DNA from: a virus
Length of the DNA: 64,000 nucleotides
Strand: one strand, 5' to 3'
IMG/VR virus record: IMGVR_UViG_3300046004_000518
Span: 1-64,000 of that record
This document shows positions 14,418-37,524 of this stretch, one piece after another. How positions within the stretch are numbered: position 1 is the first letter of the stretch; each line of letters starts with the position of its first letter. The position numbers were made by a program, and so were the translations under genes. The notes under the pieces are model-generated. The model was not told the DNA's origin and searched no databases. It worked only from the letters and a program-made list of their open reading frames with translations.

Positions 14418-15230
14418 TTACCACTTACGACAGCTCCAATATCTGGCAGATGTTCTTGGTCCTGGGTTAGCACAGTTATGACGTGCTCTAAATGACTTGC
14501 GACGTGCTGGATTAGATTTCTTAATACGCATGTTAGGATCACCAAAGTTTACTTTTTTGATGTTGCCTGTGCTAGGATCTTTAACGTAGACTTTAAACTT
14601 CTTAACATCACCTTGCATTGGTTTGCCTAAGGGAACTTTGCGGCCGTGATATTCAGCTTCATCTAGTTGTTCATCTTCGTTGTACCACAGTTCACCGTAG
14701 GCTTCAAAGAATTCATCACCATCATATGATTCTTCAATGGGTACACAGTTGTTTACACGTGTGTCACCTTTCATTTTAGTGCCTTGCTTTTTGTAACCTT
14801 TCCAACATTTAGCATCTAAACGTTGTTTACTTTCTGGCAATACTACAGAATCTGTAGTTAAATAGTTGGGGAATTTTTGGTTAAACAAACGCATAATAAC
14901 ACCAGCTTCTGCATTGGCTTCGTCCTCAATCGGACTGCCTGTTTCGCCGGAAGTGCTATCAAGTTGATCGTCTTGCCCTTGCGCATAGTGTACCATTTCG
15001 TGTGCTAGTGTACGCAATACATCAACAGGATTACGTTGGTCAACAACTACATAAATTACTTGTTCATCATTAACATAACGACCGAACGTTGTATCATCTA
15101 ATGATTTAACTAAACGAATTTTAGGAATGCGATCTAACTTTAAATGTTTAATGGCAATAGGCAAGAAGTCACGCAATGCATCAATTAGCGTAGCTTCCTT
15201 GGGTTCGTCAAACATTTCAAATAAGTTCAT
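14418..15230 (-). CDS. modular putative head protein: HExxH metallopeptidase-like domain plus two small Cys-containing basic modules
   Basis: MNLFEMFDE tag; TLAHEMVH; CWKGY...NNCVP; EAEYHGRKV...FRARHNC...ARYWSCRKW. Confidence 0.7.
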   Translation of the reverse strand: MNLFEMFDEPKEATLIDALRDFLPIAIKHLKLDRIPKIRLVKSLDDTTFGRYVNDEQVIYVVVDQRNPVDVLRTLAHEMVHYAQGQDDQLDSTSGETGSPIEDEANAEAGVIMRLFNQKFPNYLTTDSVVLPESKQRLDAKCWKGYKKQGTKMKGDTRVNNCVPIEESYDGDEFFEAYGELWYNEDEQLDEAEYHGRKVPLGKPMQGDVKKFKVYVKDPSTGNIKKVNFGDPNMRIKKSNPARRKSFRARHNCANPGPRTSARYWSCRKW

Positions 15231-18417: not shown

Positions 18418-19185
18418 TTAGCTATTTAACAGATAAGATTGTTGTTCAGGTGTATGTAATTGCACATACATATCTACAAACTTATCAGTCTGTGCATTGC
18501 CTTGTAGACCCAATTGATCGAATAATATATGGCCTTTGGTTTTGATTAGGTCTTGTAATTTTACTTTAATATCGGCTTGATCTATATCTATTACATTTTT
18601 TAAATCAGCTAGAACATAGTCGCCTTTATATAAAATTTGCTGTGATTCTCGAAATAATTTTATAAATTTAGTTGAATCAACAAAATCATCAAAGTTCCAT
18701 TTGGTCAAACATTCTTCTTTGATGTGATCTGGTAAATTATTAAAATCAACCAACGAAGAACAAGCTGGCCAGTCCGGAGTCTTGATATTTGCATAGCGTA
18801 TTGCTAGCCATTTATCTAGAGGACTGTTTTTATAAAACCAAAAGGCATTTTTTGTTTTTGCTAGATATATTTGTGTTTCAATATCTGTATAAATTACCAC
18901 AGTTTTTCCTGTGTATAAAAATAATGAACGTGCTGTTGCTGGGTTGCATTTTAGATATAGTTTATTTGATAAATTGGAATGTAATGTTCGATCATTCTCA
19001 ATCATAGTTTCGGACGTTTTCCAATTACTAACTTGGTTAATGTTCCATTGGTTTTGAAATATAACGTTGAAATCCTGAATGTCGCTGTTGAATATACAAT
19101 TATAATTTCCGGTTAACAGTAATAGATGCGCACAAAAATTACCACCACTGCCACCATAGTAAAATAAAGCTACATCTTGGGACAC
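18418..19185 (-). CDS. hypothetical protein (P-loop/sulfotransferase-like)
   Basis: YYGGSGGNF N-terminal loop; GTG start overlapping the upstream stop. Confidence 0.55.
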   Translation of the reverse strand: MSQDVALFYYGGSGGNFCAHLLLLTGNYNCIFNSDIQDFNVIFQNQWNINQVSNWKTSETMIENDRTLHSNLSNKLYLKCNPATARSLFLYTGKTVVIYTDIETQIYLAKTKNAFWFYKNSPLDKWLAIRYANIKTPDWPACSSLVDFNNLPDHIKEECLTKWNFDDFVDSTKFIKLFRESQQILYKGDYVLADLKNVIDIDQADIKVKLQDLIKTKGHILFDQLGLQGNAQTDKFVDMYVQLHTPEQQSYLLNS

Positions 19186-22019
19186 TACTTTAACCCTGCC
19201 AATCGGCGTAATTGTTTGATTGATTCGTTTGTTGTTGGTAATGCTCTAACTGTTAATGCACCGCTTTCTAAGCCTAGGTCTTGTTCTAATTCACGTGCTT
19301 TACGATGAGCATAAACCATATCAGCACCTTGTATTCTTGACACTACACTACCATCAGCTTTAACTACTTCAAAATCTGTAGCAGTGGTCTGTGCTACAGT
19401 TGGTTCTAATGGTAATTCTTGTTGTACTGGAGTTGCACCTTGTTCGCTAGCATCACGCTCACCGCTGATACCACGACGACGTAGTTCACGTTTAATAATA
19501 ACTCTAAAGTAAGCAGTCTGTTGATCATTTAATACTGCGGTTGTGCTGACATTACGTAATACGTTGATTAGATCCATGTCACTCTTATCTGCTACATTGT
19601 CTAACCATTCACGATGTGCTTGAGGTAAACTATCACGCACTGCGTTTTCAGCACCACCTGCGTTTGCTCTATCTGCTGCCGCCTGCGCATCTGCAAAACT
19701 AGTGTACGTGCCTGCACTTGGCGTTGTTTCGGCTGGTGTTGCTCTATAGTATCTAGTATCAACATTATTAACACTACCGTATACATGTAGTGCTTCGTCA
19801 CTGGTTCTTGCGTTAACAGTACCAGCAGGTTCACCTAGTCCGTTTATAATATTCCAAGTTACTTCCGGACGGCCAGCATCTTGTGTGGTAGCAATGGCTT
19901 CTAAATCGTGTAGGCCCACTGATATCCGTTGCTCTCGCATGAATATATCTGCGGCTTTAAGTTTAGCCTGACGAGGACTATCAGCATCGACGAATACCGG
20001 GTCTTGATCTACATGTCTACCACGAGCAAAATAAACCTTCCAGCGTGTTTCATTGCCGTCGACTACTCCTTGATCCATTCTACTGCGTAGTTCGGCATCA
20101 ATCTGTTTAACTATCCAGCCACTGGCATCGGCATCTAAATTATCACCACCATTTATTACTCGTTGTCTCACAGAGTTTGCTGTATCTACTGTAACAGTAG
20201 GTAATGTTTCTTCAACCCAATCCTTCCAACTCTGTGACAATGATGCTGGTGCAGCATCACCTATTTCTTCACTCTTAAACAATTCAGCTTTTAGTTGGCT
20301 GATACTTTGTTCGCGATTCATACCCATTTGCTTACCGCCTAGGATGATAGCGGCTGTTTCACTAGCGGCAAACACCATTTGCTTGCCACCAGTGCCATCT
20401 TTGTTCATGACCCAGTACTGTACTTCTTCGCCTTTCTTCTCTTTACGAGCTGTTTGTGCTTGACGAACATTACTTACTAATTCTGATTTGTTGATCTGTC
20501 CTAGAGCATAGCGACTGAACAATGCTACGCTATTATTAGGATCAGTCCATTCGCCTTCTGGGCTGATTAGTTTGTATAATTTCTTAGCGTATTCTTGTTT
20601 GTATGCTGACTCGTCTGTGGCAATACGTAGGCTTTGTGCTAGACGTAGAGCAGTATTAACAAGTTTAGGTATGTCTTCGTTTAGATAATCACCACCTGGA
20701 CCACGGAATTCTACGTAGTTGCCTTTGGTATTGATACTTGTATACTTTTGTGTAACGCCACTGTGTACTAGTTTACTAGCTGCCGCTCCAAGATGTTCTT
20801 TCATCTTGGCCAACAATTCTGTGGCGTTTTCTGGATTGGCCTGAATCTTTTCTTTAACAATCTTCATGGCACTTTTAGCATAGGTATTGTACTGACGACC
20901 AAACTCTTGAAGTACGTATTCGTCACCTAGGAATAATGCTAGTTTAACATAGTCTAGATTATCAGTGGTCATGTTAGGCACACTGATGTTCATGTGTAGG
21001 CCCGTTGATTTGTTAGTATAACAACCTGCCAACTTAGCCCATTGTTTAACTTTTTTCAACATAGTCAAGCCATCTTTAAGCGGCATTGCTGGACTGATAA
21101 ACTCTAGGCCGGCGTCACCTTGGTTAGCATCAATTGACGCATCGGGTTCAATGATAAAATAACCTTGTTCTTGTTGTTGACTACGACTACCACTGTGGTA
21201 ATTACTAAACCCGCGTGCTTCATATCCAGTAGCACCATAAAAGTCATCTGCTACTTGATCTATGTCTGCATCACCACCATCATTGCCTTCGTTAGCGTCA
21301 TACATGTGAGGCCAATCAAAGCCCCAATGACGTTCAGCGTCCTGCATATCACCAATGCCAATGTCGCTTAACCAAGCACCTTCATCGCCATCACCACCGT
21401 TACGGAAGTCATCTTCCATTTCTTGACGTGCTTGGTCGTAGGCATATTGATACTCTCTACCGCTGGTATCTGCCATTAATTCATCTACTCGATCTTCGAT
21501 CATTTCTAATGTTATGACACGAATTTCTGCATCGGCATCATCACTGTCAGGATCTTCGTCAGGGTTTGCTTCTATCCAGCGAGTGCGTGCCGCATCTTCG
21601 ACATCATCACGATCAATTTCACCTTCTAGTCGATCTCGGATAAGGCTATCTAATTCATCAGTGTTGTCGTCTATGTAACGATTGGCAGCTTCATTGGTCC
21701 AATCTAAGTATTCATCATACAGTTCACTGCGATAACGCTCAGCACCACTACGACTCATGTTACTGAAATCACCGTTGCGGAAGAAGTTAAGAATGTCATC
21801 GATATTGTAGGCGCTTTCGTTGTATTCGTAATCGTATTCCCACTCAGGCTCGTTATCACCTGTGCTGGCATTTGGCACGCACATTTCAAATTCGATACCC
21901 ATAAGCATACCATCAGCTTCTGGACTGTTGGCAAATGCTTCTAGGCTGGATGGACTCATCGATACTTCATCAATGATCTCTGCTTCTTTTAAGGCTTGTT
22001 TAATTTGACTATAACGCAT
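19185..22019 (-). CDS. putative amidoligase (COOH-NH2 ligase type 2) domain protein with acidic insert and C-terminal modules
   Basis: GIEFE, IEPDASI, LEFISP, TNKSTGLHMNIS and YVEFRGPG motifs; ends NESIKQLRRLAGLK. Confidence 0.75.
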   Translation of the reverse strand: MRYSQIKQALKEAEIIDEVSMSPSSLEAFANSPEADGMLMGIEFEMCVPNASTGDNEPEWEYDYEYNESAYNIDDILNFFRNGDFSNMSRSGAERYRSELYDEYLDWTNEAANRYIDDNTDELDSLIRDRLEGEIDRDDVEDAARTRWIEANPDEDPDSDDADAEIRVITLEMIEDRVDELMADTSGREYQYAYDQARQEMEDDFRNGGDGDEGAWLSDIGIGDMQDAERHWGFDWPHMYDANEGNDGGDADIDQVADDFYGATGYEARGFSNYHSGSRSQQQEQGYFIIEPDASIDANQGDAGLEFISPAMPLKDGLTMLKKVKQWAKLAGCYTNKSTGLHMNISVPNMTTDNLDYVKLALFLGDEYVLQEFGRQYNTYAKSAMKIVKEKIQANPENATELLAKMKEHLGAAASKLVHSGVTQKYTSINTKGNYVEFRGPGGDYLNEDIPKLVNTALRLAQSLRIATDESAYKQEYAKKLYKLISPEGEWTDPNNSVALFSRYALGQINKSELVSNVRQAQTARKEKKGEEVQYWVMNKDGTGGKQMVFAASETAAIILGGKQMGMNREQSISQLKAELFKSEEIGDAAPASLSQSWKDWVEETLPTVTVDTANSVRQRVINGGDNLDADASGWIVKQIDAELRSRMDQGVVDGNETRWKVYFARGRHVDQDPVFVDADSPRQAKLKAADIFMREQRISVGLHDLEAIATTQDAGRPEVTWNIINGLGEPAGTVNARTSDEALHVYGSVNNVDTRYYRATPAETTPSAGTYTSFADAQAAADRANAGGAENAVRDSLPQAHREWLDNVADKSDMDLINVLRNVSTTAVLNDQQTAYFRVIIKRELRRRGISGERDASEQGATPVQQELPLEPTVAQTTATDFEVVKADGSVVSRIQGADMVYAHRKARELEQDLGLESGALTVRALPTTNESIKQLRRLAGLK

Positions 22020-22025
22020 ATTAAG

Positions 22026-22031
22026 TATTTA
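22026..22031 (-). promoter_or_regulatory. putative late promoter (TAAATA), 6 nt upstream of ATG
   Basis: gATAAATActtaatATG, no Shine-Dalgarno. Confidence 0.6.
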
Positions 22032-22039
22032 TCGTTGTG

Positions 22040-22552
22040 TTAATCATTGACCCACAGTTCGAGTGAGTAGTTGCCGCGCTGGCTGGACCATGGCTGGCCT
22101 AGTTGCTTAAAGCCCTGTGCTACTAAATTATTCTTTGATGCTGTGTTATCTGATCTGGTTGTGGCAAATATGTTCGAGCCAGCAGATGCTAATAATTTTT
22201 GACTTACAGCGGTGTTTAATCCCTGTCGACGATAGTTAGGATCTGTATATGAATAGCCCTTTTCATAACGATAACGATTGGCTAACTCACTAACGCCGGC
22301 AGCAGTGAATACTTTAGTCTTGTATGTATCCAATGGTGTTTTTAATGCTGTAATAGCAATAATATCACCTTGTTCATTTGTGGCATAGCTCAACATCTGT
22401 GCTCGTTGTACACCCGCACGGGCATTGGCGGCTGATACCTCACTGCCCTGAGCAATAAAGTCGCTGAGTTTACCTAGTTGCTCTGCTGACAGTTGACCTG
22501 GTCGCACAGCAACTACACTATTATCTTCAGTTAAAAATTCATTTGCTCTCAT
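22040..22552 (-). CDS. GNAT acetyltransferase with N-terminal tag MRANEFLTE
   Basis: YTDPNYRRQGLN acetyl-CoA motif; N..S...L...GF. Confidence 0.8.
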   Translation of the reverse strand: MRANEFLTEDNSVVAVRPGQLSAEQLGKLSDFIAQGSEVSAANARAGVQRAQMLSYATNEQGDIIAITALKTPLDTYKTKVFTAAGVSELANRYRYEKGYSYTDPNYRRQGLNTAVSQKLLASAGSNIFATTRSDNTASKNNLVAQGFKQLGQPWSSQRGNYSLELWVND

Positions 22553-22569
22553 AGTCAATCCACGTATTC

Positions 22570-22651
22570 TTGCTCACTTTTGGCATCCCTCCAGGCCAGC
22601 AGCCGGCCACACCAAACACCATAACGAGTATGGGCCTAAGGTAGGTGTTCT
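22570..22651 (-). ncRNA. candidate structured RNA (unassigned)
   Basis: GC-rich intergenic island with several complementary segments (AACACC/GGUGUU, CCAUA/UAUGG, CCUUAGGCC/GGCCUGGAGG, GGCCGG/CUGGCC). Confidence 0.45.
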
Positions 22652-22960
22652 TTAATCTATTCGTTCGCCTTCTTCTCTTGCTATACGGGCAATATTGTTT
22701 GACGCACGAGCAGGTTGTATATCAAAATTTTCGTATCTTCTTGCTATAGATTGTAATATCCTAGTAACATTGATATACTCATCACCTACTATGTTATCAG
22801 GAACAATAACTAAGATATCCCAGTCACTTTCATCGTGTTCAGTTCCAATTACCCTGCTACCGTGAAACCATATTTCTTCTGCTGGCACTTGAGCTTTGAT
22901 TTGATCTACTATAGTATCAAAAAACTCGTACGACTCGGTTAAGAATTCATTGGCTCTCAT
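22652..22960 (-). CDS. minimal nucleotidyltransferase (MNT, pol-beta fold) with tag MRANEFLTE
   Basis: WFHGSRVIG...SDWDILV (GS...DxD). Confidence 0.85.
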   Translation of the reverse strand: MRANEFLTESYEFFDTIVDQIKAQVPAEEIWFHGSRVIGTEHDESDWDILVIVPDNIVGDEYINVTRILQSIARRYENFDIQPARASNNIARIAREEGERID

Positions 22961-22961
22961 A

Positions 22962-23957
22962 TTAGCTCTTATAATAGAAGTAGTGTATATCTTCTTCTGG
23001 ATTATACTTTACTACTAAATCGTCTAACACAAACTCATCGCCGTATTCGTCAACCAACTGCGCAAACGTGGTGGCATCACCGAAAATATATTCAATAACA
23101 TCATCATCGGTACAATTACCTTGATAGCTTAATCCTTCGTCTTCGCTTATAAATTCATTTGCTCTCATATCAGTCTGATTCAACACATACCTATCATACA
23201 AATCACTTAATTGAAAATCACTACGAATTAGTTGCTCTTCAGCACTGCCTGTAGGCCACGGTTTCTTTTTATTATATGCTATTTGATATGCTTTTTCTGG
23301 AGTTAACGGCACATTTTTTCTAACTGCGTCCTTAAACACGCTGTATAGAATAGGGTAGTCTTCATCACCTACCATACCTGACGCAACAGGCTGTTGGCCA
23401 CCTTCACGGCGAATAAAATCAGCAAATACTTCTTGAAACACTTTTTTTGGATTACGACAGTAATCTCTGCTGGATTGACAGTCATCAGTAAAGCCTTCAA
23501 AGTGTACACGGTAATCACCTACTTCATCTACACCAACATCTTCCGGTGTTAGGTCATTTAAAAATTCTTCAACTTCTGGATCTAAGGATTCAGTTAATTC
23601 TTTAACAGGCACATACGCTGATATGTGCGTTATTCCTAATTCTCTTGCCTGCCACGCACGATGATTACCATCTAAGATATGCCCTTGGGCGTCTATGACA
23701 ATAGGCTTACGCTTAATATCGTCAGGTGAGATTTCATCAGCATAGTCTACATCAACGTGTACTACACGACCATATGGATCATCGTCTGCGTCAATTTGTA
23801 ATTGATCTACTGCTACAGTTTTTAGTACATATTCTGTATTGGCTAATATTATTCGATCTAAGTTACTGTCTTTTTGTGATACTGGATGTATGCTGTTGAC
23901 ATAGTCTAAGACCTTGCCAGCACTAACTGTTTCTAAGATAAATTCTTTAGCTCTCAT
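22962..23957 (-). CDS. ParB/Srx-like domain multi-module protein with tag MRAKEFILE
   Basis: PIVID...ILDGNHRA; internal LTES site and a second internal tag MRANEFISE. Confidence 0.75.
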   Translation of the reverse strand: MRAKEFILETVSAGKVLDYVNSIHPVSQKDSNLDRIILANTEYVLKTVAVDQLQIDADDDPYGRVVHVDVDYADEISPDDIKRKPIVIDAQGHILDGNHRAWQARELGITHISAYVPVKELTESLDPEVEEFLNDLTPEDVGVDEVGDYRVHFEGFTDDCQSSRDYCRNPKKVFQEVFADFIRREGGQQPVASGMVGDEDYPILYSVFKDAVRKNVPLTPEKAYQIAYNKKKPWPTGSAEEQLIRSDFQLSDLYDRYVLNQTDMRANEFISEDEGLSYQGNCTDDDVIEYIFGDATTFAQLVDEYGDEFVLDDLVVKYNPEEDIHYFYYKS

Positions 23958-24658
23958 TATTTTAAACTCAAATCATCGTCTTGTTGTTGACGGTATGCTT
24001 TACTTAATTTGTCCATGTACTTCATATTACGTAGGATTTTAAATGCTAGATTTTCTGTGCTGAATTCACCGTTGGCATCTAACCCTGCACGGCGCATTTT
24101 ACGAATCTTTTCTGATATGCGTTTAATATCTTCTGGATCATCAGCGGCTATTATAGCATGATCAATTTGGCTACGTAGATCTAATACTTTGGCATTAACA
24201 CTAGCACGATCAATTGATGGTACTTTAAAGTCAGGAGTTTTAAGCCACTTATTGTTTAACAAACTATACACACCTTCGCTAACTGGAGGTTGCGCAACAT
24301 CTTCTACATACAATTCTACATCATAACCGTAGATAGTAATGTCGTGTCCATCATTCCAAATTTGTTTCTTGGCACGATAGAACGCTTCGGCAATATCATC
24401 ACATTGTAGATCACTGTAGTTGGTAACAACATGTACATCAAAGTCACTGAACTTAGTCCAGTTATAGTTGGCCATGCTACCTGTGAGTACAACATCTTCT
24501 ACTTTAAAATTAGGAATCTCTAAGTAGCTGACAAAACGTTCAGCTATTTCTAACAAGCGATTGCGAACTTCTTCGATGAGTGTGTTATCGTCCCATGCCG
24601 CTGGATTCAGCTGACTGTTATAAGCAACGTTGTTCTTGGTAAAGTCTCTAGCTCTCAT
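23957..24658 (-). CDS. pol-beta-fold nucleotidyltransferase with tag MRARDF
   Basis: VLTGSMANYNW...SDFDVHV...VELYV. Confidence 0.8.
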   Translation of the reverse strand: MRARDFTKNNVAYNSQLNPAAWDDNTLIEEVRNRLLEIAERFVSYLEIPNFKVEDVVLTGSMANYNWTKFSDFDVHVVTNYSDLQCDDIAEAFYRAKKQIWNDGHDITIYGYDVELYVEDVAQPPVSEGVYSLLNNKWLKTPDFKVPSIDRASVNAKVLDLRSQIDHAIIAADDPEDIKRISEKIRKMRRAGLDANGEFSTENLAFKILRNMKYMDKLSKAYRQQQDDDLSLK

Positions 24659-24666
24659 TGTTTATC

Positions 24667-25044
24667 CTAACCGTTTGTAAAATCAAATAACGCATCTTCG
24701 CCTTTGTCTGTTAAGGCAGAATTATGTACTAGACCATTGGCTGCTAATGATTGTTGTAGTGCGTCAAAGTCTTTAGTTTGCCCTAGACTATCATAGCCAT
24801 ACCCTAGCTCGTTGTCGTGTGCAGTTTGAATTGCTTTTAGCACTAACATAGTGCCGTACCCTTTTCTTTGAAATTCTGGGGAAATACTCACGTCGTGAAA
24901 TGCATCACCTTCTTCGTCAACACTATATTTGTATGCGCCAACCTTAACGTTGCTGACAAATAATTCCACAGTGAATCCACGAGCAAAGTTACTTTGGCTA
25001 CTTACTCGAAATTTATTAGTGTTAGTAACTTCGTTTATCAGCAT
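24667..25044 (-). CDS. GNAT acetyltransferase with tag MLINE
   Basis: VSISPEFQRKGYG motif. Confidence 0.75.
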   Translation of the reverse strand: MLINEVTNTNKFRVSSQSNFARGFTVELFVSNVKVGAYKYSVDEEGDAFHDVSISPEFQRKGYGTMLVLKAIQTAHDNELGYGYDSLGQTKDFDALQQSLAANGLVHNSALTDKGEDALFDFTNG

Positions 25045-25045
25045 A

Positions 25046-26407
25046 TTAGTGTATTGCGTATTCTACACGCTTGCCTTCTTTATCTGTGTACAGCAAACTA
25101 ACGTCCCATGCTCCATTACCACCTGCACGTTTAACGTAGATGTGATCTTTAATCCATTCTGCTACACCACCGTCACTATCTCTGCCGCTGATATTTTGTT
25201 CTAGGCTGTAGATAAAGATTTGATCGAGATCTGATATTTCTTGTGTATCGGCACCCCACTCACGACCTGTTTCTTCGGCTAGCGCACGCACATCCCATGG
25301 CTGTAAATCCACAGCATTGTTGATAGAGACAATAAAATCATTTGCTTCGTAATTCCAACTGGTGTAACTTTCGTCAGCATCTGCTGCAGCATCAAAGTCA
25401 ATTTCGCCTTCTTCCTCGTGGCCTTCTGGATATACATATCCTTTTTCACGTAGGTAATCCCACCAGTAGTCGTCCCCAACTTCCCAATCATTGACTATTT
25501 CACTAACATGATCGTTTACGGCTGTTTTAATTTTTTCTATTAACGGTTTTAGTACTTCGTCGGAAGCAAAGACTATCCAATCATTCAAATAGCCTTCTGG
25601 CATTTCTTCCTGGAAAAACGGTACTAAATTGCCAAAGCGCACTGTTAGTAAATCTACAATACTGTCTACACTGTTGTCGCCTTCGTCCATAAACTGACCA
25701 CTAGGGAAGTGTAGTTGATATTTTTCACCTTCGTAGTCAGGCCGTTTAGGCAGTAGGATATACATTTGTCCATCGCGGGCATACTGCTCGAATCTATTGT
25801 TTTCACGTGCGGCTGTACACCATCTAGTGCCTTGACCATAGTAACAGGCTGCATCTTCGTCATGCGGCACAATAATGCGCACAGCTTCATTTTCGAACGC
25901 AGTGTAGGCATCGCCCTTGCTCATAGTTTTAGCAGCATCCTGTTCTTCTTTGGCCGCTAAGGCGTTACGCAGATCGAGATTTTGTGCAATATCTTCTAGT
26001 CCAGCAAAGTCAATGCGACCAATGTCACGATACTCTGCAGGTAAGATTTTTTTAACTTTAAATTCGTGATACATTTTAAGCGCACTGTTACCACGGCTTA
26101 TTATATCTTCTAATTTGATGCCTTGGTTAGCATATACTTTAGTCAACCATTGTACATACTCTTTATTAGGAGTAGGGTCGGAATTTTCAATTACAACCAT
26201 GATATGGTCAATGATTATTTGACGTTGTTCTGCTGTAATCGCATCATTAATCTTGATCTTTTGATCAATGAACGCACGGTCTGTGCCTAATTGTGTACCA
26301 GAAAGAGTATGGCTCTTGTCCTTACCCAAGGCCGCAACAAGTTTATTGCCAAAGACATTAACTGTCTTTTCTCTACTGTATTCTCTTAAAAATTCTTTAA
26401 ATCGCAT
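25046..26407 (-). CDS. hypothetical protein with tag MRFKEFLRE (central YG.GTRWC domain, acidic C-terminus)
   Basis: DPTPNKEYVQW; AACYYGQGTRWCTAA; EKYQLHF. Confidence 0.7.
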   Translation of the reverse strand: MRFKEFLREYSREKTVNVFGNKLVAALGKDKSHTLSGTQLGTDRAFIDQKIKINDAITAEQRQIIIDHIMVVIENSDPTPNKEYVQWLTKVYANQGIKLEDIISRGNSALKMYHEFKVKKILPAEYRDIGRIDFAGLEDIAQNLDLRNALAAKEEQDAAKTMSKGDAYTAFENEAVRIIVPHDEDAACYYGQGTRWCTAARENNRFEQYARDGQMYILLPKRPDYEGEKYQLHFPSGQFMDEGDNSVDSIVDLLTVRFGNLVPFFQEEMPEGYLNDWIVFASDEVLKPLIEKIKTAVNDHVSEIVNDWEVGDDYWWDYLREKGYVYPEGHEEEGEIDFDAAADADESYTSWNYEANDFIVSINNAVDLQPWDVRALAEETGREWGADTQEISDLDQIFIYSLEQNISGRDSDGGVAEWIKDHIYVKRAGGNGAWDVSLLYTDKEGKRVEYAIH

Positions 26408-27338
26408 CAAACTGTCCTAATATACGCTGTGCTTCTCTAGTCAATAATGCTTTAGTATCCTCGGCTTTTTTCTTAGCCTCTGGAGTTTCTGCCTTATCAA
26501 ACTTACTGCTATTAACTGCCTTGCTTATTTTACTTATGTAAATTGCTTTGACTTGTTCTATTAGCTCAGGACGACCTAGACTTTCGGCAATGCCAACAAT
26601 ACTGTTAATAGTATTTGAAGTTTTTATTTCGTCACCCATGCCCGGATACTTGGCTAGACGTGCGCTGATAGTTGGTGCACCGAGAAACTTAGCAATATCT
26701 ACGGCCCATGTATCAGGATTGTTAGTTATAGTTCTAAGCTCTGTATCTTTAGTTTGTCTAAAACTAACCGGTACACCATTCTGCAATTTAACCTGTACAC
26801 CGCGCCCGCCAAAGCTAAGATTTAATGCTTCTGCCAAGGATGAATATAAACTTGCACTTAGTACACCCTTAACATTGTACTCTGGGCCCAATGCACGACT
26901 CCACTGTTCATTCTCATAGTAAGCTGTAACAAAGTCAACTTGTACATATTGATCGCCTACTTTAATTATAACATTTGTACCGTTGCTAGTCGAGTAGTTT
27001 GGGTTACTGTCGCAAAACTCTTTGATAGCTGAACTGTATGTTTGTTCGTTAGCATTGTCTGACATGTCGGGTAGTCGTGGCACAAAGAAATTAACATCAA
27101 TGTCACCATACTCGCGTTGAGGATTTTGCGCAAGGTCACGTTTGTAGTAGGTTGTACTGCCAACCGGTGTGCCTATCTTAACTGGTGCTAGGTCTTTGGT
27201 TTTTAAGAAAGCATTTAATGCTTGTTCAAATGCAGGTAATGATTGTACAACAACATCAACTAGTGCAGGTGTGATATGTGTACCTTGTGTTAAAGTACTT
27301 GCCCAACCGCCTTCTAGAATAAATTCCTTTGCTCTCAC
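26397..27338 (-). CDS. pol-beta-fold nucleotidyltransferase-like protein with tag MRAKEFILE
   Basis: PVGSTTYY...YGDIDV...YVQVDF; GTG start overlapping the upstream stop. Confidence 0.65.
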   Translation of the reverse strand: MRAKEFILEGGWASTLTQGTHITPALVDVVVQSLPAFEQALNAFLKTKDLAPVKIGTPVGSTTYYKRDLAQNPQREYGDIDVNFFVPRLPDMSDNANEQTYSSAIKEFCDSNPNYSTSNGTNVIIKVGDQYVQVDFVTAYYENEQWSRALGPEYNVKGVLSASLYSSLAEALNLSFGGRGVQVKLQNGVPVSFRQTKDTELRTITNNPDTWAVDIAKFLGAPTISARLAKYPGMGDEIKTSNTINSIVGIAESLGRPELIEQVKAIYISKISKAVNSSKFDKAETPEAKKKAEDTKALLTREAQRILGQFDAI

Positions 27339-28072
27339 AGCACTGCCTTCCAGTTCTTAAACCATGCCGCTGAACCTTCACCTACTATCTCTTGACGTGT
27401 TTCTGGCAATTGTACATTTTCTTTGCCTAAGGTTTCACGTGCATCTGCTACTAAGGCATTGTAGTTAGGCAAATTTTTAATCTTAGCTAGTATAGTTTCA
27501 ACTGATGCTAGATCAGCTGCACTACCATTGAATAGTTTGTGTGCAATTTCACTTGGGTCTTTAGAAACGACTTCATTAGTCTCACGATCCATTAGGCCGT
27601 TTTTGTATGACCATTTCATGCCCTGTGCTTTGGCAATTGATGCTAGTAACACATGGCGATGCATGCCTTTGAATGGGCTACCTTCTGGACTACCTGTCAT
27701 ACTAAAACGTTGGAAACTAGGATCACCAAACATAAAATCAGTTTGTACATAGCCATTCTTTGCTTCGCCATTGATGGGTGTTTTAAAATGTACGCTGTCG
27801 CCTGTCTTTTTAATGTCAGTAGGTTCAATGCCTTTCTTTAATAGTTGTTGTACCAGTACATCTTTGCTGATTTTACTCACATCAACTGCTAGGTCTAGGT
27901 CGCCACTTGTTTCTTTGTAGCCAGTTGACCCTAGCATATTGTCTACTAGATTAAGTCCTGTTAATTGCTCTAACCATTTAACTGTAGGAATGACATCTGC
28001 ACGATTGATACGTCCGGTTGCTTCGCTACCATCAGCTAGTTTAAATACATTCCCACCTTCAGTTATTTTCAT
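27335..28072 (-). CDS. pol-beta-fold nucleotidyltransferase-like protein with tag MKITE
   Basis: LGSTG...SGDLDLAVD...YVQTDF. Confidence 0.7.
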   Translation of the reverse strand: MKITEGGNVFKLADGSEATGRINRADVIPTVKWLEQLTGLNLVDNMLGSTGYKETSGDLDLAVDVSKISKDVLVQQLLKKGIEPTDIKKTGDSVHFKTPINGEAKNGYVQTDFMFGDPSFQRFSMTGSPEGSPFKGMHRHVLLASIAKAQGMKWSYKNGLMDRETNEVVSKDPSEIAHKLFNGSAADLASVETILAKIKNLPNYNALVADARETLGKENVQLPETRQEIVGEGSAAWFKNWKAVL

Positions 28073-28097: not shown

Positions 28098-28107
28098 TAT
28101 TTATTTA
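28098..28107 (-). promoter_or_regulatory. putative late promoter (TAAATA) heading the tagged-enzyme array
   Basis: TAAATAAATA upstream of 28072. Confidence 0.55.
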
Positions 28108-30550: not shown

Positions 30551-30579
30551 ATTATATAGTATGTGTAATCGATAATCAA
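30551..30579 (-). promoter_or_regulatory. sigma70-type promoter giving a probable leaderless mRNA
   Basis: TTGATT-N17-TATAAT, 6 nt before ATG. Confidence 0.6.
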
Positions 30580-33179
30580 CCTGGTGCTATGCCAGACCAT
30601 GTAATTATACCAAAACCAGATTGACCTGCTGATCCAGGGATATTTTTGTATCCTGCTGCTGACCCAGCACCGCCACGTGCACCGCCATTAGTAGAGCCTC
30701 GGCCTGGACTGAAGTAACTTTGAGCTCTGGCTGCTCCACTTGCACCGCCGCTCTGTAATAAGATAGTGCTTGCACCCAGAGCAATAGTAGACGACCCTCC
30801 TGCGGCACCTGCACCTTGGCCACCGCCACCCGCACCACCTGTACCGATATCATATGAATATGTTTGCCCTGCTGATACAGTTCGAGTTACTGATACTAAA
30901 TCCGATGCACCACCACCAAGACCAAACAACCAGTGATTTTTATCGCCGCCATCTGATCCGCCACCACCGCCGCCGCCACCGCATATAGTAAATGTAGCTG
31001 AGGTTACATAAGCTGGAACAGTCCAACTACCGCTACCTGATATTGTCAATGATCCAGTAAATGGTACAGGAGTTCTTGACGTATCTGCAATTGCACAACT
31101 AGCACTTGCACCTTTACCGTCTAGTGTAATAGTTATATTTTCTACACCTTCTGTAGTCAAGTCGTTACTAAGAGTAAACGCAGCAGATTCAGCTGAGCCA
31201 ACTATAAATTGTCCAGTCATGGCTCCTGATGATAAATCGGCAGCATTAACGCCACTTAGTGACCATCGAACTACTTCTCCGGTGGTTGCTCCAACAGATG
31301 ACATGGTAAAGGTTACTGTCTCGCCTTCATCTATAGATGCGGTATCTCCGAATATACTGTACACAGGACTAAGTGATATATTATTTACTATACACGATGC
31401 ACTAACTCCTTTATTGTCAAGAAATACTTTTAATGTTCTTGCTCCGTATGTTGTATGATTTAATTTTGGAGTAAAGCTAATTGTGTCAGTTGTACCTACT
31501 ACAAAATTACCACTCAACGCACCAGCCGTTAATGCAGTTGCGTCTATACCAGTTGCGGTATAATGAACTACTGTACCATTTGTTAGGCCAGTACCACCCA
31601 AAGTGAATGTAACTGTATCGCCTTCATCTACTGAACTAAAATCAGGAGTCAGCGTGTAGATTACTGTAGGGTCATTTAGATTTTCCGCACCTTGGATTGA
31701 TCTGGATGTAATTAACGGTTGCCATGCACCACTAACTTTAGTCCAACCATTTAATAATTCTTTCCACATGCCATCAACTTTAACCCATGCACGATCAATA
31801 CTTCTCCAATTATTAGATTTTTTTAAATTAATATTAAAAGATTTTGTAAAGACTAAAAGCGCAGCTCCATTTTTGTCTGGATATCCGGGATTAGTACTTG
31901 GATACTCAGGTATTGAGGCGCCGCCTGGGCCAGAACCAGAACCTGCTTGTATAATAGTTCCGTAGCTTATACCGCCTTCGCCACCGTCGGATCCATTGGT
32001 ACTACTAGCACCAGCCAGGCCGCCAAAATATCCACCACCGCCACCACCACCAGTAGATGGACCTTCTGCTGAATCAGCACCTTGGCTTGTTCCGCCACTG
32101 CCTCCGACTATCTGAGCATTGCCGCCAACTTTACCTTGAGTCCCAATTATACCACCACCTCCGCCACCGCCACCACCTGCAGCAACAGCAACTACCACAC
32201 CGTTAACTGTGATAACAGTGGCTCCACCGCCACCACCACCGCGTCCTTCCCTAGATGCAGCACCGGCAGTGCCGCCGCTGAAATTAGTTGGACTAGTTAA
32301 TCCTTTACCACCAGCATATCTTACTCCGGCGCCACCGACTGACACTACAACAATATCGCCCTGCGTTACTCTTATTTTTCTATTTGCATATCCGCCTGTT
32401 CCGCCTGTTCCGCCTTGGCCGCCACCATACGAAGTGTATACCGGTTCGTACACTGGAGCATATACTGGTTCATATACTGCTTGTACTCCCTCGGGTACTG
32501 CGGCCCACGACACAATAACTGTACCAGAACTACCTGCTGCACCCGATGATCCATATCCGCGCGGTGATCCTGACCCACCGGAACCAGCACCGATAGCAGA
32601 AGATGCGCCTGGAGATACAGCTTTAACTGCTCTGTTTGCACCTCCGCCGCCACCTGCAGCCTTTACGATAGTTGCTCCGTTTACTGCAACAACAGTTGCT
32701 GATCCTGCTCGTCCTGCCCTATCTGTGCCGCCGCCTTTTCCACCAGCACCTACAGTGGCAGTAATTATTTGGCCCGGTGTCACGGCTACAGTTGTTGTAG
32801 CCAATTCCCCAGCTTGTCCGCCTAGTCCATATATATTATGATTCTTATCGCCACCATCAGAGCCGCCGCCTCCACCACCGCCACCAACGGCAGTTATGTT
32901 AACGGATGTAACTCCTTTTGGAACAACTAACTCTTTACTTACAATTGCTTGCCCGGCAGCAACGCCCGCTCTTACTACAACCGTTCCAACTACTTGAGTT
33001 CCAGTTTGTACACTACCGACTTGGCGTGTCCCAGTCTGACGAGCAACCGTTTCACCAGCGGTGCCGCTTCCACCGCCACCGCCCCATAAGAAAAACTCAA
33101 GTGCGCTGACTCCTTGCGGAATAACGTAGATGTATGTACCAGGTATAGTATATTCTGTAGTTTGACTTATAAGACTCAT
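30576..33179 (-). CDS. glycine-rich virion/tail-associated protein with Ig-like repeats
   Basis: Three VP.GV...GGGGG domains, WVKVDGMWK motif, two S(V/I)DEG.TVTFT repeats. Confidence 0.75.
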   Translation of the reverse strand: MSLISQTTEYTIPGTYIYVIPQGVSALEFFLWGGGGGSGTAGETVARQTGTRQVGSVQTGTQVVGTVVVRAGVAAGQAIVSKELVVPKGVTSVNITAVGGGGGGGGSDGGDKNHNIYGLGGQAGELATTTVAVTPGQIITATVGAGGKGGGTDRAGRAGSATVVAVNGATIVKAAGGGGGANRAVKAVSPGASSAIGAGSGGSGSPRGYGSSGAAGSSGTVIVSWAAVPEGVQAVYEPVYAPVYEPVYTSYGGGQGGTGGTGGYANRKIRVTQGDIVVVSVGGAGVRYAGGKGLTSPTNFSGGTAGAASREGRGGGGGGATVITVNGVVVAVAAGGGGGGGGGIIGTQGKVGGNAQIVGGSGGTSQGADSAEGPSTGGGGGGGYFGGLAGASSTNGSDGGEGGISYGTIIQAGSGSGPGGASIPEYPSTNPGYPDKNGAALLVFTKSFNINLKKSNNWRSIDRAWVKVDGMWKELLNGWTKVSGAWQPLITSRSIQGAENLNDPTVIYTLTPDFSSVDEGDTVTFTLGGTGLTNGTVVHYTATGIDATALTAGALSGNFVVGTTDTISFTPKLNHTTYGARTLKVFLDNKGVSASCIVNNISLSPVYSIFGDTASIDEGETVTFTMSSVGATTGEVVRWSLSGVNAADLSSGAMTGQFIVGSAESAAFTLSNDLTTEGVENITITLDGKGASASCAIADTSRTPVPFTGSLTISGSGSWTVPAYVTSATFTICGGGGGGGGSDGGDKNHWLFGLGGGASDLVSVTRTVSAGQTYSYDIGTGGAGGGGQGAGAAGGSSTIALGASTILLQSGGASGAARAQSYFSPGRGSTNGGARGGAGSAAGYKNIPGSAGQSGFGIITWSGIAPG

Positions 33180-33868
33180 TAATCAGTTTCCTTGGTGTTG
33201 CAAATTGTGTCGTAATCTTGCATTGTTAGTGTATTACCTTCATGACTTAGAGCAATTAAACGTTCTGCTAAATCGTGTAAATCCGCATCTGTTTCGGCAT
33301 CTTCGCGAGCAAATTCAAATAAGCGTATTAATAGTGGAATATCGACACTAATAACATCTTGTGGATTAAATTCTTCCTTAACTGGTATCTCGCCGGTTAA
33401 CGGACCTGCCGCTGGAGTTGCTGCACCGCCACTTGCACCATCATCTGCGCTGTGCCATTGATCTGTGCCGTCATTCCATTGATCATTACCGTTGTGCCAT
33501 GCTGGATTATCACCGGCCCACGCATCTTCTTTAACGTGTTTAAAATAGTTAACCTGACGTTCACGTTTTTCAGCACCAGCTCGAGTTGGATATTTACCTA
33601 AGTTCTTACCAGTATGTGATTTAAGTTCATACTGGCTGCCCACTTTTACAATTGTTTCGTCTACAGGTTTAGCCAGTGCTGTTGCTTTTTGGTGAATACG
33701 TGTGCTGTATTCTTTACCATATTTGTTACGCAAATGCGTCATGTAATCAAAATATTCCTGACGTGCCTTAGTATCAGATAGTGCTCTATTCACTAGACCG
33801 TGTGCAGTAACAACATCTGCTACTTCATTATCTTCGTTAACTGCTGGATTAAAATCTTGTATACGCAT
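33179..33868 (-). CDS. modular putative head protein with tag MRIQDF
   Basis: Modules separated by VNED, VDET, VKED, VKEE; GKNLGKYPTRAGAEKRERQVNYFKH module; TAAATA at 33897-33902. Confidence 0.65.
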   Translation of the reverse strand: MRIQDFNPAVNEDNEVADVVTAHGLVNRALSDTKARQEYFDYMTHLRNKYGKEYSTRIHQKATALAKPVDETIVKVGSQYELKSHTGKNLGKYPTRAGAEKRERQVNYFKHVKEDAWAGDNPAWHNGNDQWNDGTDQWHSADDGASGGAATPAAGPLTGEIPVKEEFNPQDVISVDIPLLIRLFEFAREDAETDADLHDLAERLIALSHEGNTLTMQDYDTICNTKETD

Positions 33869-33938
33869 AATTGCTCTCAGATTGACTCATATAAGATATT
33901 TATGCTAATTTAATTCTAAGTAAAACTTATAAAAAGAC

Positions 33939-34466: not shown

Positions 34467-37352
34467 TTATGGTGTTAGTTTAGCTTGATTTGCTATAGTT
34501 TTAAACTGTGATGCAAGTTTAGGATCTGCAGCGGCTTTGTTAAGCACACCCATTATTGGAGCAAGTGCTTTTACATCAGTTGATGTTGCTGTGCCTAACG
34601 TAGCTGAATCAAGTGCTTTATCCAATGTGGCCGGAGCAACCGTAGTGCCTGTTGCGGTTTTTAGTGTATTAGTTGCCGCAGCCGCTTTTGCTACAGCCGC
34701 TGGATCAGCTGGTTTAGCACCCGGTGTTGCGGTAGCTACTGTGGCTGCACCAGGAACTGCAAACTCTTTAACGGGCTTTTTTACAGCGGCTTTTTCCTTA
34801 CGTAAGCGTATTTGTTCTTGGCGTTCTGCTGGTGTAGGAACCTGAACATTCTGCATACGATCCATATTACCTAACTTAGTAGCAATAACTTTATGTCCAC
34901 GTGATTCTTTAAATTCACGCAACTTGCTTTGTAAGTCTGAATACTGTTGATTTAAACTGCCTAATCTACGTGCTAATTCATCTTTAAGTTGTGGATCTTG
35001 TGATGTAGTCGGATCCATTTGAATTTGTTGTAATGCACTACGTTTAGCCTGATAATCTTCTCGATCAAGTAATGGGGTTTCACTGCCTTCACCTAGACGA
35101 TTGCGACTAGCCGCACGTGCTGCCATACTGCTTACACCTGCTTGTGCTTGCTTTTTATCCTTCATAGGATCTTCATTCTTAACAGTTAAAATTTCATTAG
35201 AGAATTTAACTTTAGTAGGATTAATACTGTCAACATAGTGTTGAATAGCTGGACTATTGTTGTTAGCATCTACTAGATCTTTAAGTAAGAATGGTTGACT
35301 TGTAGCGGCTACTACCATATTAGTAATAACTTCTGGTGCAACTTCTGTATGTCCCTGTTGAATAAGTTCTTGTACTGCGGCCAACACAGCGCCTTCAACT
35401 GGATCGTTAGATTCAATACCTTCATTAATAGCACGGTAAGCTAAGTTCTTACCATAGTTAGATTGGATGTAGGCCATAGCGTGCCCTTTAGTTGGGAACA
35501 CTTTATCGGTGACTGGCTGACGTGTATCAAGGCTAACTACGTGATACCCTTTAGCTTCTGGTTCTTTTTGAGCATAAGGCGCATCTAATTTCTCTTGACG
35601 ATGTGCATCATATTCAGCATCTGGATCACGTTCAACTCTGGTACGCTCTTCAGGACCACTTTCCCAACCTTCTTCTACGTCTTTACTAACAGTATCATGA
35701 TAGTATTCGGCGCTTGCTACTTTTAAACCATTGGCTTCTGCGTACTGTTTAGCACCTTTATGTGTGCGGAATTTTTTCTTAACTGTTTTAGTTTTTGGAT
35801 CGTATACATAGAAATCGTTGTTCCAAGTAGTACGTGCTTCCACCACACCTTGATTTTGCTTTTTAATCCATGCATTGGCTTCTTCAGCTGATTTAAATGG
35901 ACCAGCAACACTTCCGCCTTGACCATCTTTAAATACACGCCAAACACCGTCTTTAGTTTCACGACCAGTGTAGTTTTCTGCTAGGTCTTTTACTAAACGT
36001 ACATCTTGTTTAAGCACTACTGCTTGCCCACCATCTTCTAAGTCTAGGTCAAGATATACACGATTTCTTAACTTGTCAGTTTTGATCTGACGAACATATC
36101 CAGTTTTACCAGCATCACGACCTTTAACGATAGTAACTTTTTTGTGTAGACCTTTGCTAGGACCACGACCTTCTGCCATGTTACCATGATCTACGTAAAA
36201 GCGTTCGTTGCTACTACCATTAGCCGCTGCATTGTCTTTAGCATTGTTTAAATTTTGTACCAATGATTCAATACTCTTTGGGTTAAGATTGATTTTTCTG
36301 TTACCACGTTCATGTTCGTATGATTTACCAGTTTCTAATGTGTAGCCATAGTATTCAATAAGTTCAGCTAACGTACCTGACTTACTACGCTCTCTACCAT
36401 TTCTTTCTGATGTTATTGAGTAAACATCAGCCGCACCTTCACCAACTTGTGTATAAGGATGTGGATCGTTTTCTTCTTCATCACGATTGCGATTACGCTC
36501 TTGTTCGGCATCAGTTGGAACTTCTTTAGGCCAAGGAATTGATTTTCTTTTTGCTGCACGTTGTTTAGCTTGAGATTTGGCAAATTCTTCCATACCTTCT
36601 CCTAATAAATCTTCGTCGTCATCATGATCCCAGCTATCGTCATCTTCTTCGTCATCATAGTCATCATCTTCTTCCGCAGGACCGTAGTCCATAACGTCTA
36701 AACTGTCCCAACCTTGGTTAGGGTGATAGTTACCATTGGCTTTAAGAGCAAACTCTGTAGCTTTGTGTGCTAGATCGTCGTAGCTGGTAACCGGACCAAT
36801 ATACTGTTCTAGTTGTCTATAACTTGCTTGGTTAAATTCATCACCATCATTGAAGTGACGATAGACAATTTTACTAGCCGCACGCAACACTTCACCTTCA
36901 ATAGTTTCTGCCGCACCCTGTGCCGGTACTAATTTTTCATATAGTGCTTCGTATTCTTTTTGTAATGCTCCGGTACCATTCCAGTAGGTACGTGGCTCAT
37001 CAGGTAAACTAACACGATCACTACCTGTGTTCCAACCTTCTTCAACAGTGGTATAACGTTTACTTGGCTTACCATGTTTAGTATATTCACGACCTGGTCT
37101 GCTACCTTTACGACTTGGACGTTTTTCTTCTACACCAATGTCATCTTCCATAAAATTAGCGTATGCTTCTGCTAATTCTTCTTCTTTAGTTTTAGGAGTA
37201 GGACCTTTAGCTAGATCTTTGATGATGCTATCTCCTACTAATTTTTTACCCGGGGTACCTTTGTCTGTACCCTTCCATTGCTCACCTGGTTTTTGTTCAG
37301 GCTCACCGGCAAATTTAGACATAGCTTCTAATAGTTTTCGCATCATACTCAT
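34467..37352 (-). CDS. large modular putative internal head polyprotein
   Basis: MSMMRKLLE N-terminus; about 11 internal hydrophobic-x-E-(G/A/S/N) sites separating short domains. Confidence 0.65.
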   Translation of the reverse strand: MSMMRKLLEAMSKFAGEPEQKPGEQWKGTDKGTPGKKLVGDSIIKDLAKGPTPKTKEEELAEAYANFMEDDIGVEEKRPSRKGSRPGREYTKHGKPSKRYTTVEEGWNTGSDRVSLPDEPRTYWNGTGALQKEYEALYEKLVPAQGAAETIEGEVLRAASKIVYRHFNDGDEFNQASYRQLEQYIGPVTSYDDLAHKATEFALKANGNYHPNQGWDSLDVMDYGPAEEDDDYDDEEDDDSWDHDDDEDLLGEGMEEFAKSQAKQRAAKRKSIPWPKEVPTDAEQERNRNRDEEENDPHPYTQVGEGAADVYSITSERNGRERSKSGTLAELIEYYGYTLETGKSYEHERGNRKINLNPKSIESLVQNLNNAKDNAAANGSSNERFYVDHGNMAEGRGPSKGLHKKVTIVKGRDAGKTGYVRQIKTDKLRNRVYLDLDLEDGGQAVVLKQDVRLVKDLAENYTGRETKDGVWRVFKDGQGGSVAGPFKSAEEANAWIKKQNQGVVEARTTWNNDFYVYDPKTKTVKKKFRTHKGAKQYAEANGLKVASAEYYHDTVSKDVEEGWESGPEERTRVERDPDAEYDAHRQEKLDAPYAQKEPEAKGYHVVSLDTRQPVTDKVFPTKGHAMAYIQSNYGKNLAYRAINEGIESNDPVEGAVLAAVQELIQQGHTEVAPEVITNMVVAATSQPFLLKDLVDANNNSPAIQHYVDSINPTKVKFSNEILTVKNEDPMKDKKQAQAGVSSMAARAASRNRLGEGSETPLLDREDYQAKRSALQQIQMDPTTSQDPQLKDELARRLGSLNQQYSDLQSKLREFKESRGHKVIATKLGNMDRMQNVQVPTPAERQEQIRLRKEKAAVKKPVKEFAVPGAATVATATPGAKPADPAAVAKAAAATNTLKTATGTTVAPATLDKALDSATLGTATSTDVKALAPIMGVLNKAAADPKLASQFKTIANQAKLTP

Positions 37353-37516
37353 TTTGTTTTTCTCTTTTTAGGTTGTTTATACGTGCCACCAAACAATGTG
37401 CCCACTTTAGGACCTGTGCCTACACCTGGTACAGTAGCAATAGCGCCAGAGCTAGTTGCTCCGCTGGTTGCATCTTCGGTTAAGTCTGGTCGTTTGATAA
37501 TATCGGTTATTTTCAT
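37349..37516 (-). CDS. 55-aa putative head protein with tag MKITDII
   Basis: Below ORF cutoff: MKITDIIKRPDLTEDATSGATSSGAIATVPG...KQPKKRKTK; TAAATA 5 nt upstream; ATGA overlap with next gene. Confidence 0.7.
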   Translation of the reverse strand: MKITDIIKRPDLTEDATSGATSSGAIATVPGVGTGPKVGTLFGGTYKQPKKRKTK

Positions 37517-37524
37517 ATATGTAT

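Follow-up and report, generated by a model that had tools for sequence, protein, structure and literature searches.

The first 64,000 nucleotides of IMG/VR virus record IMGVR_UViG_3300046004_000518 (the window) contain, between positions 19185 and 28072 on the minus strand, nine consecutive genes whose products begin with related short peptides and otherwise differ from one another; we refer to the peptide as the tag and to the proteins as cargo 1 to 9. The window makes up the first 64 kb of a viral contig of 110 kb that is ~28% complete by CheckV. Because the family-B DNA polymerase of this contig shares 51% identity with its counterpart in Sinorhizobium phage Phosso, 46% with that in Agrobacterium phage Atu_ph07 and 43% with those of Rak2/121Q-like phages, we regard the contig, on polymerase relatedness, as a piece of an uncultivated giant phage belonging to the wider T4 superfamily. 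Genomes of the clade measure ~350-525 kb and its members are uncultivated; megablast of the block against a set of 50,697 phage records returned no nucleotide match. The block comprises the following features, for which structures were modelled with AlphaFold2 (AF2) where stated.

28098..28104, minus strand: ATAAATA motif resembling a late promoter, 32 nt upstream of the first gene in the block (22-28 kb)
27335..28072, minus strand: cargo 1, 245-aa Pol-beta/PolX-fold nucleotidyltransferase, leader MKITE before GGNVFK (AF2 and Foldseek)
26397..27338, minus strand: cargo 2, 313 aa, GTG start, tag RAKEFILE, probable nucleotidyltransferase (not confirmed)
25046..26407, minus strand: cargo 3, 453 aa, tag MRFKEFLRE, fold not assigned (111 homologues with the tag)
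24667..25044, minus strand: cargo 4, 125-aa GNAT acetyltransferase, weak leader MLINE (Pfam Acetyltransf_1, E 7e-6)
23957..24658, minus strand: cargo 5, 233-aa nucleotidyltransferase, tag variant MRARDF (Pfam NTP_transf_2; phrog_36119, E 9e-51)
22962..23957, minus strand: cargo 6, 331-aa fusion of three modules (A, the tag with a ParB-like domain; B; C), tag MRAKEFILE (alignment with related loci L004 and L005)
23589..23603, minus strand: tag remnant KELTE at the junction of cargo 6 modules A and B
23142..23168, minus strand: complete internal tag MRANEFISE at the junction of cargo 6 modules B and C
22652..22960, minus strand: cargo 7, 102-aa minimal nucleotidyltransferase, tag MRANEFLTE (Pfam Polbeta, E 3e-7; NTP_transf_2, E 4e-6)
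22040..22552, minus strand: cargo 8, 170-aa GNAT acetyltransferase, tag MRANEFLTE (Pfam Acetyltransf_1, 21.8 bits; cut-off 20.7)
22026..22032, minus strand: ATAAATA motif resembling a late promoter, 13 nt upstream of the gene for the amidoligase
19185..22019, minus strand: cargo 9, 944-aa amidoligase-domain protein, leader MRYSQIKQALKE (Pfam Amidoligase_2, E 8e-7)

The strict form of the tag, M-R-[A/F]-x-E-F-[I/L]-x-E, heads the minus-strand genes starting at 22552, 22960, 23957 and 26407. The gene starting at 27338 carries RAKEFILE behind a GTG that overlaps the upstream stop codon as GTGA, the one starting at 24658 carries the variant MRARDF, and an extra complete copy lies inside gene 22962-23957. 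The coordinates and N-termini that an earlier, sequence-only reading of this locus had given all read back as reported, as does the DNA prefix (A/G)TGAGAGC common to five of the starts. The pattern M[RK]xx[ED]F begins 6 of the 140 called N-termini of the 110-kb contig, where composition predicts 0.06, with all six falling within 22-34 kb, and the core [RK]xx[ED]F[LI]xE occurs in the contig only at protein residue 2 or at the internal methionine of gene 22962-23957. As that reading had also proposed, similarity ends right after the tag: BLASTP among the 14 listed proteins found none past residue 12 (E <= 0.01), leaving a short N-terminal peptide common to otherwise unrelated proteins. Its description of the cargo as having different folds was loose, with two GNATs and three or four Pol-beta-type nucleotidyltransferases present, and holds in that these are not alike in sequence.

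Conservation of the tag acts on the peptide. The two MRANEFLTE copies (22552 and 22960) differ at 4 of 8 codons, all synonymously, and the two RAKEFILE copies do the same; the constant positions are amino acids (F6, I/L7, E9), not bases. Among 111 homologues of cargo 3, M-R-[A/F]-[R/K]-[Q/E/D]-F-[I/L]-x(1,2)-E precedes a conserved YSREK, and one-residue indels retain I/L at P3 and E at P1. MRAxD[F/Y] begins most of the 120 listed homologues of cargo 5, and the orthologue of cargo 2 in locus L007 has an ATG start and the N-terminus MRARDFIFE. These relatives also sort out the nine tagged N-termini originally claimed. The strict tags stand; MKITE (28072), weak alone, is supported because 113 of 120 homologues of cargo 1 carry an M..[I/L]xE leader of 5-7 residues directly before the invariant GGN (a few start MGG); and the leader of cargo 9 (22019) is supported because its orthologue in the complete 525-kb genome G013 has the strict-type MRATDFIILE in its place at the same junction. 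MLINE is not significant by itself. The strict tag is a real element, conserved at the peptide level. At least three leader classes coexist.

The identities of the cargo are secure to differing degrees. Pfam detected one amidoligase domain, two GNATs and two Pol-beta-type nucleotidyltransferases in the block. The AF2 model of cargo 1 (predicted local distance difference test, pLDDT, 87.7; residues 1-6 below 50) has a palm-thumb Pol-beta/PolX fold, with Foldseek matches to Pol lambda, beta and mu at E about 1e-4. Cargo 2 has no Pfam or PDB match, a weak profile match to cargo 1 and an Atlas lead to NTP_transf_2, which leaves its nucleotidyltransferase identity unconfirmed, and tblastn against the isolate phage collection returned nothing for it. 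Cargo 3 has no PDB fold match, and its relatives are uncharacterised viral proteins plus weak PcfJ-like matches; its homologue in phage PA5oct, gp205, is annotated as a virion structural protein by electrospray ionization tandem mass spectrometry (ESI-MS/MS). From the payload list of the sequence-only reading, the amidoligase, both GNATs and the nucleotidyltransferases of cargo 1, 5 and 7 stand, the 313-aa protein is a probable fourth nucleotidyltransferase, and the ParB-like (cargo 6; phrog_620, E 8e-4) and zincin calls are weak. The AF2 models of cargo 1 and cargo 3 place the tag outside the folded domain with a low-confidence junction; in cargo 3 it is modelled as a short helix over residues 3-9, behind which residues 10-12 form a break of low confidence.

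Comparison with related loci revealed exchange of cargo behind a constant tag, as had been predicted. Six IMG/VR loci with orthologues of cargo 3 (64-99% identity) keep the flanking genes and differ in the cassettes between them, with extra cassettes headed by MRAREFIIE, MRANEFIIE, MRATEFLTE, MKSNEFLSE, MKPSEFIKE and others. Five further genes of the window, outside the block, carry looser leaders.

14418..15230, minus strand: 270-aa protein of two modules joined at VVLPE|S (14832-14846), the first zincin-like (HExxH) and preceded by the Alt-like leader MNLFEMFDE
33179..33868, minus strand: 229-aa protein, MRIQDF...VNE; ATAAATA 35 nt upstream (33897-33903)
34467..37352, minus strand: 961-aa polyprotein-like gene, leader M(SM)MRKLLE, internal boundary VEE|GWNTG (37038-37052)
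37349..37516, minus strand: 55-aa basic protein, MKITDII...LTE; ATAAATA 12 nt upstream (37522-37528)
37829..38563, minus strand: cytidylyltransferase-like protein with the Alt-like leader MFLTEIFE (Pfam CTP_transf_like, E 2e-4)

Pfam matches to the zincin are weak, and the 961-aa protein has no Pfam match and the appearance of a chain of short modules. Orthologues of the cytidylyltransferase-like protein retain MFLTELFES or MFLSQLFES. A possible relationship between the 55-aa protein and a strictly tagged 65-aa protein in locus L059 was too weak in similarity and was not used.

Four cases of fusion or splitting each break exactly at the end of the tag, and the junctions retain (L/V)xE. The modules of the 331-aa cargo 6 are joined at KELTE|S and MRANEFISE|D, and in L004 and L005 its middle module directly follows MRAREFITE|S and connects to the last module through TELTE|D. 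In L003 the second module of the 270-aa zincin-like protein forms a gene of its own, headed MKSNEFLSE, and at the VEE|GWNTG boundary of the 961-aa protein a shorter relative in L006 starts MRFGEIKKQLAE|GWNTG. The fourth case is the leader of cargo 9, exchanged for MRATDFIILE in G013 as described above. Most cargo is single-domain, the 331-, 270- and 961-aa proteins being small fusions, and we found no large polypeptide combining several effector domains. Homologues of cargo 5 from metagenomic phages (P0011-P0013, P0038, P0049, P0070 and P0108-P0110) are fused to a GNAT, dCMP-deaminase-type or zincin-like module, and P0109 retains MKFQDL as an internal tag where the modules meet.

The genomic setting of the tagged genes resembles that of late genes. 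The motif ATAAATA occurs 20 times in the 110-kb contig, 14 times within 60 nt upstream of a gene and in the sense orientation, and the genes behind it include tail-fibre and baseplate-like genes as well as the portal gene in relative G001; sigma-70-like sites showed no enrichment. The T4 late promoter is TATAAATA, which ATAAATA resembles. TAAATA had been reported directly upstream of the block and of four other tagged units, and we find the full ATAAATA 12-35 nt upstream of the genes starting at 28072, 22019, 33868 and 37516, with TAAATA only at 38563. The expectation that the tag be rarer in replication genes was borne out, in that it is absent there and confined to a block headed by this late-promoter-like motif. 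Expression together with head genes is accordingly supported at the level of the motif.

A head protease of the appropriate kind is encoded in the lineage. In G001, a 219-kb relative with orthologues about 80% identical, the gene order is portal, a gene for a 74-aa protein with the N-terminus MNLLEIFNSE, an acidic scaffold-like gene and, at the contig end, a Peptidase_S77 gene (PF03420, gp21-type). Among 26 further tag-bearing contigs, this protease family is present in all four that are at least 50% complete and in one smaller one (the contigs concerned, besides G001, are G006, G013, G021, G025 and G029), and PA5oct encodes a PF03420 protease as well. The scaffold and major capsid proteins of G013 have N-termini with repeated (L/I)xE motifs; genes for scaffold-like proteins lie at 352822-353652 and 354315-355418 of that genome. 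The presence in relatives of a gp21-type protease, in G001 beside portal and scaffold genes, agrees with the earlier proposal of a plug-in enzyme payload.

The tag is widespread. We searched IMG/VR with a DNA pattern encoding M-R-A-x-E-F-[I/L/M]-x-E, using the same pattern read backwards as a control, and obtained at least 120 matches against 0 for the reversed pattern. All 96 of the 96 matches examined were starts of open reading frames, and the 87 complete cargo proteins among them fell into 27 clusters. About half of the tagged cargo belongs to a family of ~125 aa whose C-terminus is conserved and basic, of the form SPV..FKGYKRK, and whose central part contains the motif Y-R-F-G-V-A. This family occurs at L045:10711-11492 and 46 other IMG/VR loci and at G013:258302-259068, often as tandem pairs, and is absent from the contig of the window; it has no Pfam match and, by tblastn, no isolate-genome match, and may correspond to the small internal proteins of T4. 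At L066:6640-7242 a strict tag is directly followed by a 200-aa ADP-ribosyltransferase (PF03496, E 1e-12), which has no tblastn match in the isolate collection, and further tagged cargo of the clade includes GNATs, M23+LysM and SLT+LysM proteins. Taken with the ParB, zincin, nucleotidyltransferase and GNAT set and with the virion protein of PA5oct detected by mass spectrometry, the Alt-like ADP-ribosyltransferase and the peptidoglycan hydrolases give the payload the character of packaged cargo that had been proposed for it. Searches of GTDB genomes gave 33 matches, about half of them chance or internal; because the rest are phage-like contigs inside metagenome-assembled genomes, we infer no host from them. 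Homologues of cargo 5 also begin with MNLQEFVDKK in L024 (Synechococcus phage DSL-LC02, a cultured T4-like cyanophage) and MNLKTLVE in L025 (Maribacter phage Molly_1), and other phage groups may therefore address this type of nucleotidyltransferase by leader variants of their own.

The tag resembles the capsid-targeting sequence (CTS) of T4, on which Mullaney and Black reportedly wrote in 1996. In T4, the CTS is present on IPI, IPII, IPIII and Alt and is removed by the gp21 prohead protease (PMC9026906, PMC3012670); its first ten residues suffice for packaging, and targeting and processing require the conserved aromatic residue and (I/L)-x-E, with aromatic positions serving targeting and positions 8 and 10 serving processing (PMC9026906). 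The T4 N-termini (NC_000866) are MKTYQEFIAE for ipII and ipIII, MKTFKEF with a cut after ITE for ipI, MELITELFDE for Alt and MAKINELLRE for gp24, and the likeness of MRAxEF[I/L]xE to MKTYQEFIAE that the sequence-only reading had drawn holds on inspection. Both are propeptides or propeptide-like sequences of ~10 residues at the extreme N-terminus of otherwise unrelated proteins, both have the core E-F-[I/L]-x-E and end in accordance with the (I/L)-x-Glu cleavage rule (the exception being MRARDF at 24658), and both head a hypervariable cargo locus behind a constant tag. Both also belong to late genes (here by motif) in lineages with a gp21-type protease, a portal and an acidic scaffold. One cargo type of the clade is, like Alt, an ADP-ribosyltransferase, and the leaders MNLFEMFDE and MFLTEIFE resemble that of Alt. 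The tag differs from the T4 sequence in being one residue shorter and in having Arg2-Ala3 where T4 has Lys2-Thr3-Tyr4. Whereas T4 has a handful of mostly small, non-enzymatic internal proteins, the phage described here has a contiguous late operon of about nine enzymes and at least five outlying tagged genes, with at least three coexisting leader classes and modules fused into small polyproteins with tag-derived junctions.

We consider it probable (roughly 70%) that the tag serves as a capsid-targeting propeptide of the T4 type, carried by late enzymes that are packaged in the head and injected. Under this model, the tagged genes would be transcribed late from ATAAATA promoters and, because stop and start codons abut or overlap, those of the block would be translated by coupling. 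The tag, through Arg2, Phe6 and Ile/Leu7, would dock each protein onto the scaffolding core while the prohead assembles, and the gp21-type protease would then cut after (I/L)-x-Glu, both behind the tag and at the same motif in internal module junctions. Mature enzymes, among them Pol-beta-type nucleotidyltransferases, GNATs, the amidoligase, the ParB-like protein and the zincin, would be freed in the head, would exit with the DNA at infection and would reach host targets before any phage gene is expressed, where they may serve in anti-defence or host takeover. Because the tag is short and portable, cargo genes could be gained, lost, fused and split at its boundaries. The sequences themselves show the tag, its conservation as a peptide, the turnover of cargo, the late-promoter setting and the presence of a protease gene in the lineage; docking, cleavage, packaging, injection and the function of the cargo are inferred from these.

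Several observations weigh against this interpretation. The strict tag DNA pattern is absent from Phosso and Atu_ph07, the nearest cultured relatives, and from PA5oct and T4; it is likewise absent from a 636-kb uncultured phage, and we found no cultured carrier. The 110-kb contig, which represents ~28% of its genome, has no head or protease gene, late timing is deduced from the ATAAATA motif, and the specificity of the lineage's protease is taken over from T4 by analogy. MRARDF (24658) has no cleavable Glu, and MLINE (25044), as noted, is not significant alone. Of the two systems, packaging has been demonstrated for that of T4 only.

Three other explanations account for parts of these data. 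The common 5' end could be a module at the nucleic-acid level, such as a context for translation initiation or reinitiation in tightly coupled genes that lack Shine-Dalgarno sites, or a microhomology through which cassettes recombine, encoding a peptide with no sorting role. Most genes of the block do abut (TAA-T-ATG) or overlap (ATGA/GTGA) and lack a clear ribosome-binding site, modules break where tags lie, and 33 of 42 tags encode Arg2 by AGA, a codon that accounts for 19-36% of Arg codons. Untagged genes with Arg2 nonetheless use AGA in 20 of 40 cases, so that this preference is a general start-context bias, and the same peptide is kept where a tag directly follows its own promoter with no upstream gene. 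Recombination at tags is expected under capsid targeting too. The synonymous variation between identical tags contradicts a role confined to the nucleic acid, and the invariance of amino acids rather than bases also speaks against it; we regard this explanation as very improbable. That the tag loads proteins into the prohead and that they act there, whether in assembly, in modifying or condensing DNA or as material broken down while the head matures, is a little less improbable, and would fit the T4 core and shell proteins gp22, gp67, gp68 and gp24, non-effectors that carry the same kind of propeptide, as well as the basic C-terminal tail of the ~125-aa family, which could bind DNA. Set against this, the substrates and cofactors of ADP-ribosyltransferases, GNATs, nucleotidyltransferases and peptidoglycan hydrolases (NAD, acetyl-CoA, NTPs, cell wall) belong to the host cell rather than a sealed capsid, and rapid cargo turnover among close relatives is typical of conflict genes, not assembly factors.

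The third explanation, which we judge unlikely though somewhat less so than the other two, takes the tag to be a recognition leader for other machinery, either a modifying enzyme of the radical-SAM type or sorting to the tail, the baseplate or export. These phages do encode many radical-SAM enzymes (1 on the contig of the window, 12 in G001 and 11 in G013), and the cytoplasm is not the site of action of some cargo (LysM combined with M23 or with SLT, one protein bearing a Tat-like motif). The nearest radical-SAM gene is, however, 62 kb from the tags on the contig and at least 18 kb away in G001, and most tags of G013 are far from any; because PF04055 genes are not near the tags in these three, a leader linked to radical-SAM enzymes, as in ribosomally synthesized and post-translationally modified peptides (RiPPs), was rejected. 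Nor does the tag look like a Sec or Tat signal: its nine residues are charged and end in Glu, with no hydrophobic core of 10 or more residues. Its match is specifically to the T4 CTS and the associated cleavage rule, and the G001 gene in the head-core position beside the portal starts with the related MNLLEIFNSE.

The capsid-targeting interpretation also places the locus relative to two other systems of head-internal proteins. Polyvalent proteins, in which nucleotidyltransferase, GNAT, ParB and zincin domains are typical, are predicted to be packaged in the head (Iyer, Burroughs, Anand, de Souza and Aravind 2017; PMC5512222). They resemble the tagged cargo in the repertoire of Pol-beta nucleotidyltransferases, GNATs, ADP-ribosyltransferases, zincin-like metallopeptidases, ParB-like domains and peptidoglycan hydrolases and in the predicted route of capsid packaging, delivery with DNA and proteolytic release. 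Their 2-15 domains, however, lie in one giant polypeptide with no common N-terminal address tag, whereas the cargo here consists mostly of separate tagged genes, and release, which we assign to the head protease, would fall to an in-built peptidase in polyvalent proteins. The ejection proteins of phiKZ-like phages (SPN3US, phiKZ) have propeptides of 80-130 residues with the cleavage motif A/S/G-x-E (PMC5694885). There too, N-terminal propeptides target head-internal proteins and are cut after Glu by a gp21-related protease, and paralogues sometimes have identical N-termini, but these are not a short portable tag common to many unrelated enzymes. The mechanism is known from T4, and the variant described here would be a new form of it; among papers mentioning the T4 signal, we found no description of such a tag system for uncultivated giant phages.

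Further features of the region were noted in passing. The sole sizeable gap in the operon, 22560-22651 (92 nt), is locally GC-rich, and a 27-codon out-of-frame open reading frame overlaps the start of the next gene; as a candidate structured RNA it was rejected, with no Rfam match and a folding z of +1.17, no better than shuffles. Next to the block, 29186-29989 encodes a DNA/RNA non-specific endonuclease (PF01223, E 5e-44) with a signal peptide and an ATAAATA motif in front, and 30576-33179 encodes an 867-aa protein with a glycine-rich domain. Judging by N-terminal sequences, GroEL-, GroES-, CspA- and DnaK-like proteins are apparently encoded beyond the window, at 83864-85775 and 87859-88062 of the contig, and at G001:4850-6766.

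That most giant phages are uncultivated severely limits what can be learned of the proteins they inject. A short conserved tag would mark packaged proteins and make the injected proteome readable from genome sequence, and the predicted payload list would offer candidate enzymes acting before any phage gene expression, to which relatives add an ADP-ribosyltransferase and wall hydrolases. Cassette exchange and fusion at the tag suggest a possible route by which such an arsenal evolves. A broader proposition, to which we give even odds, is that the tag is a portable address code across the clade: any protein placed behind it would be loaded into the head, clipped and injected, genes would be reshuffled, joined and divided at its boundaries, fused chains would be cut apart by the head protease, and abundant uncultivated aquatic giant phages would command dozens to hundreds of injected enzyme families. 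The T4 packaging signal is already used as a protein-delivery tool, and the tag would extend it to a second, widely conserved variant. If the address code holds, the tag would become a sequence handle with which to mine metagenomes for effectors of host takeover and anti-defence that act in the first minutes of infection.

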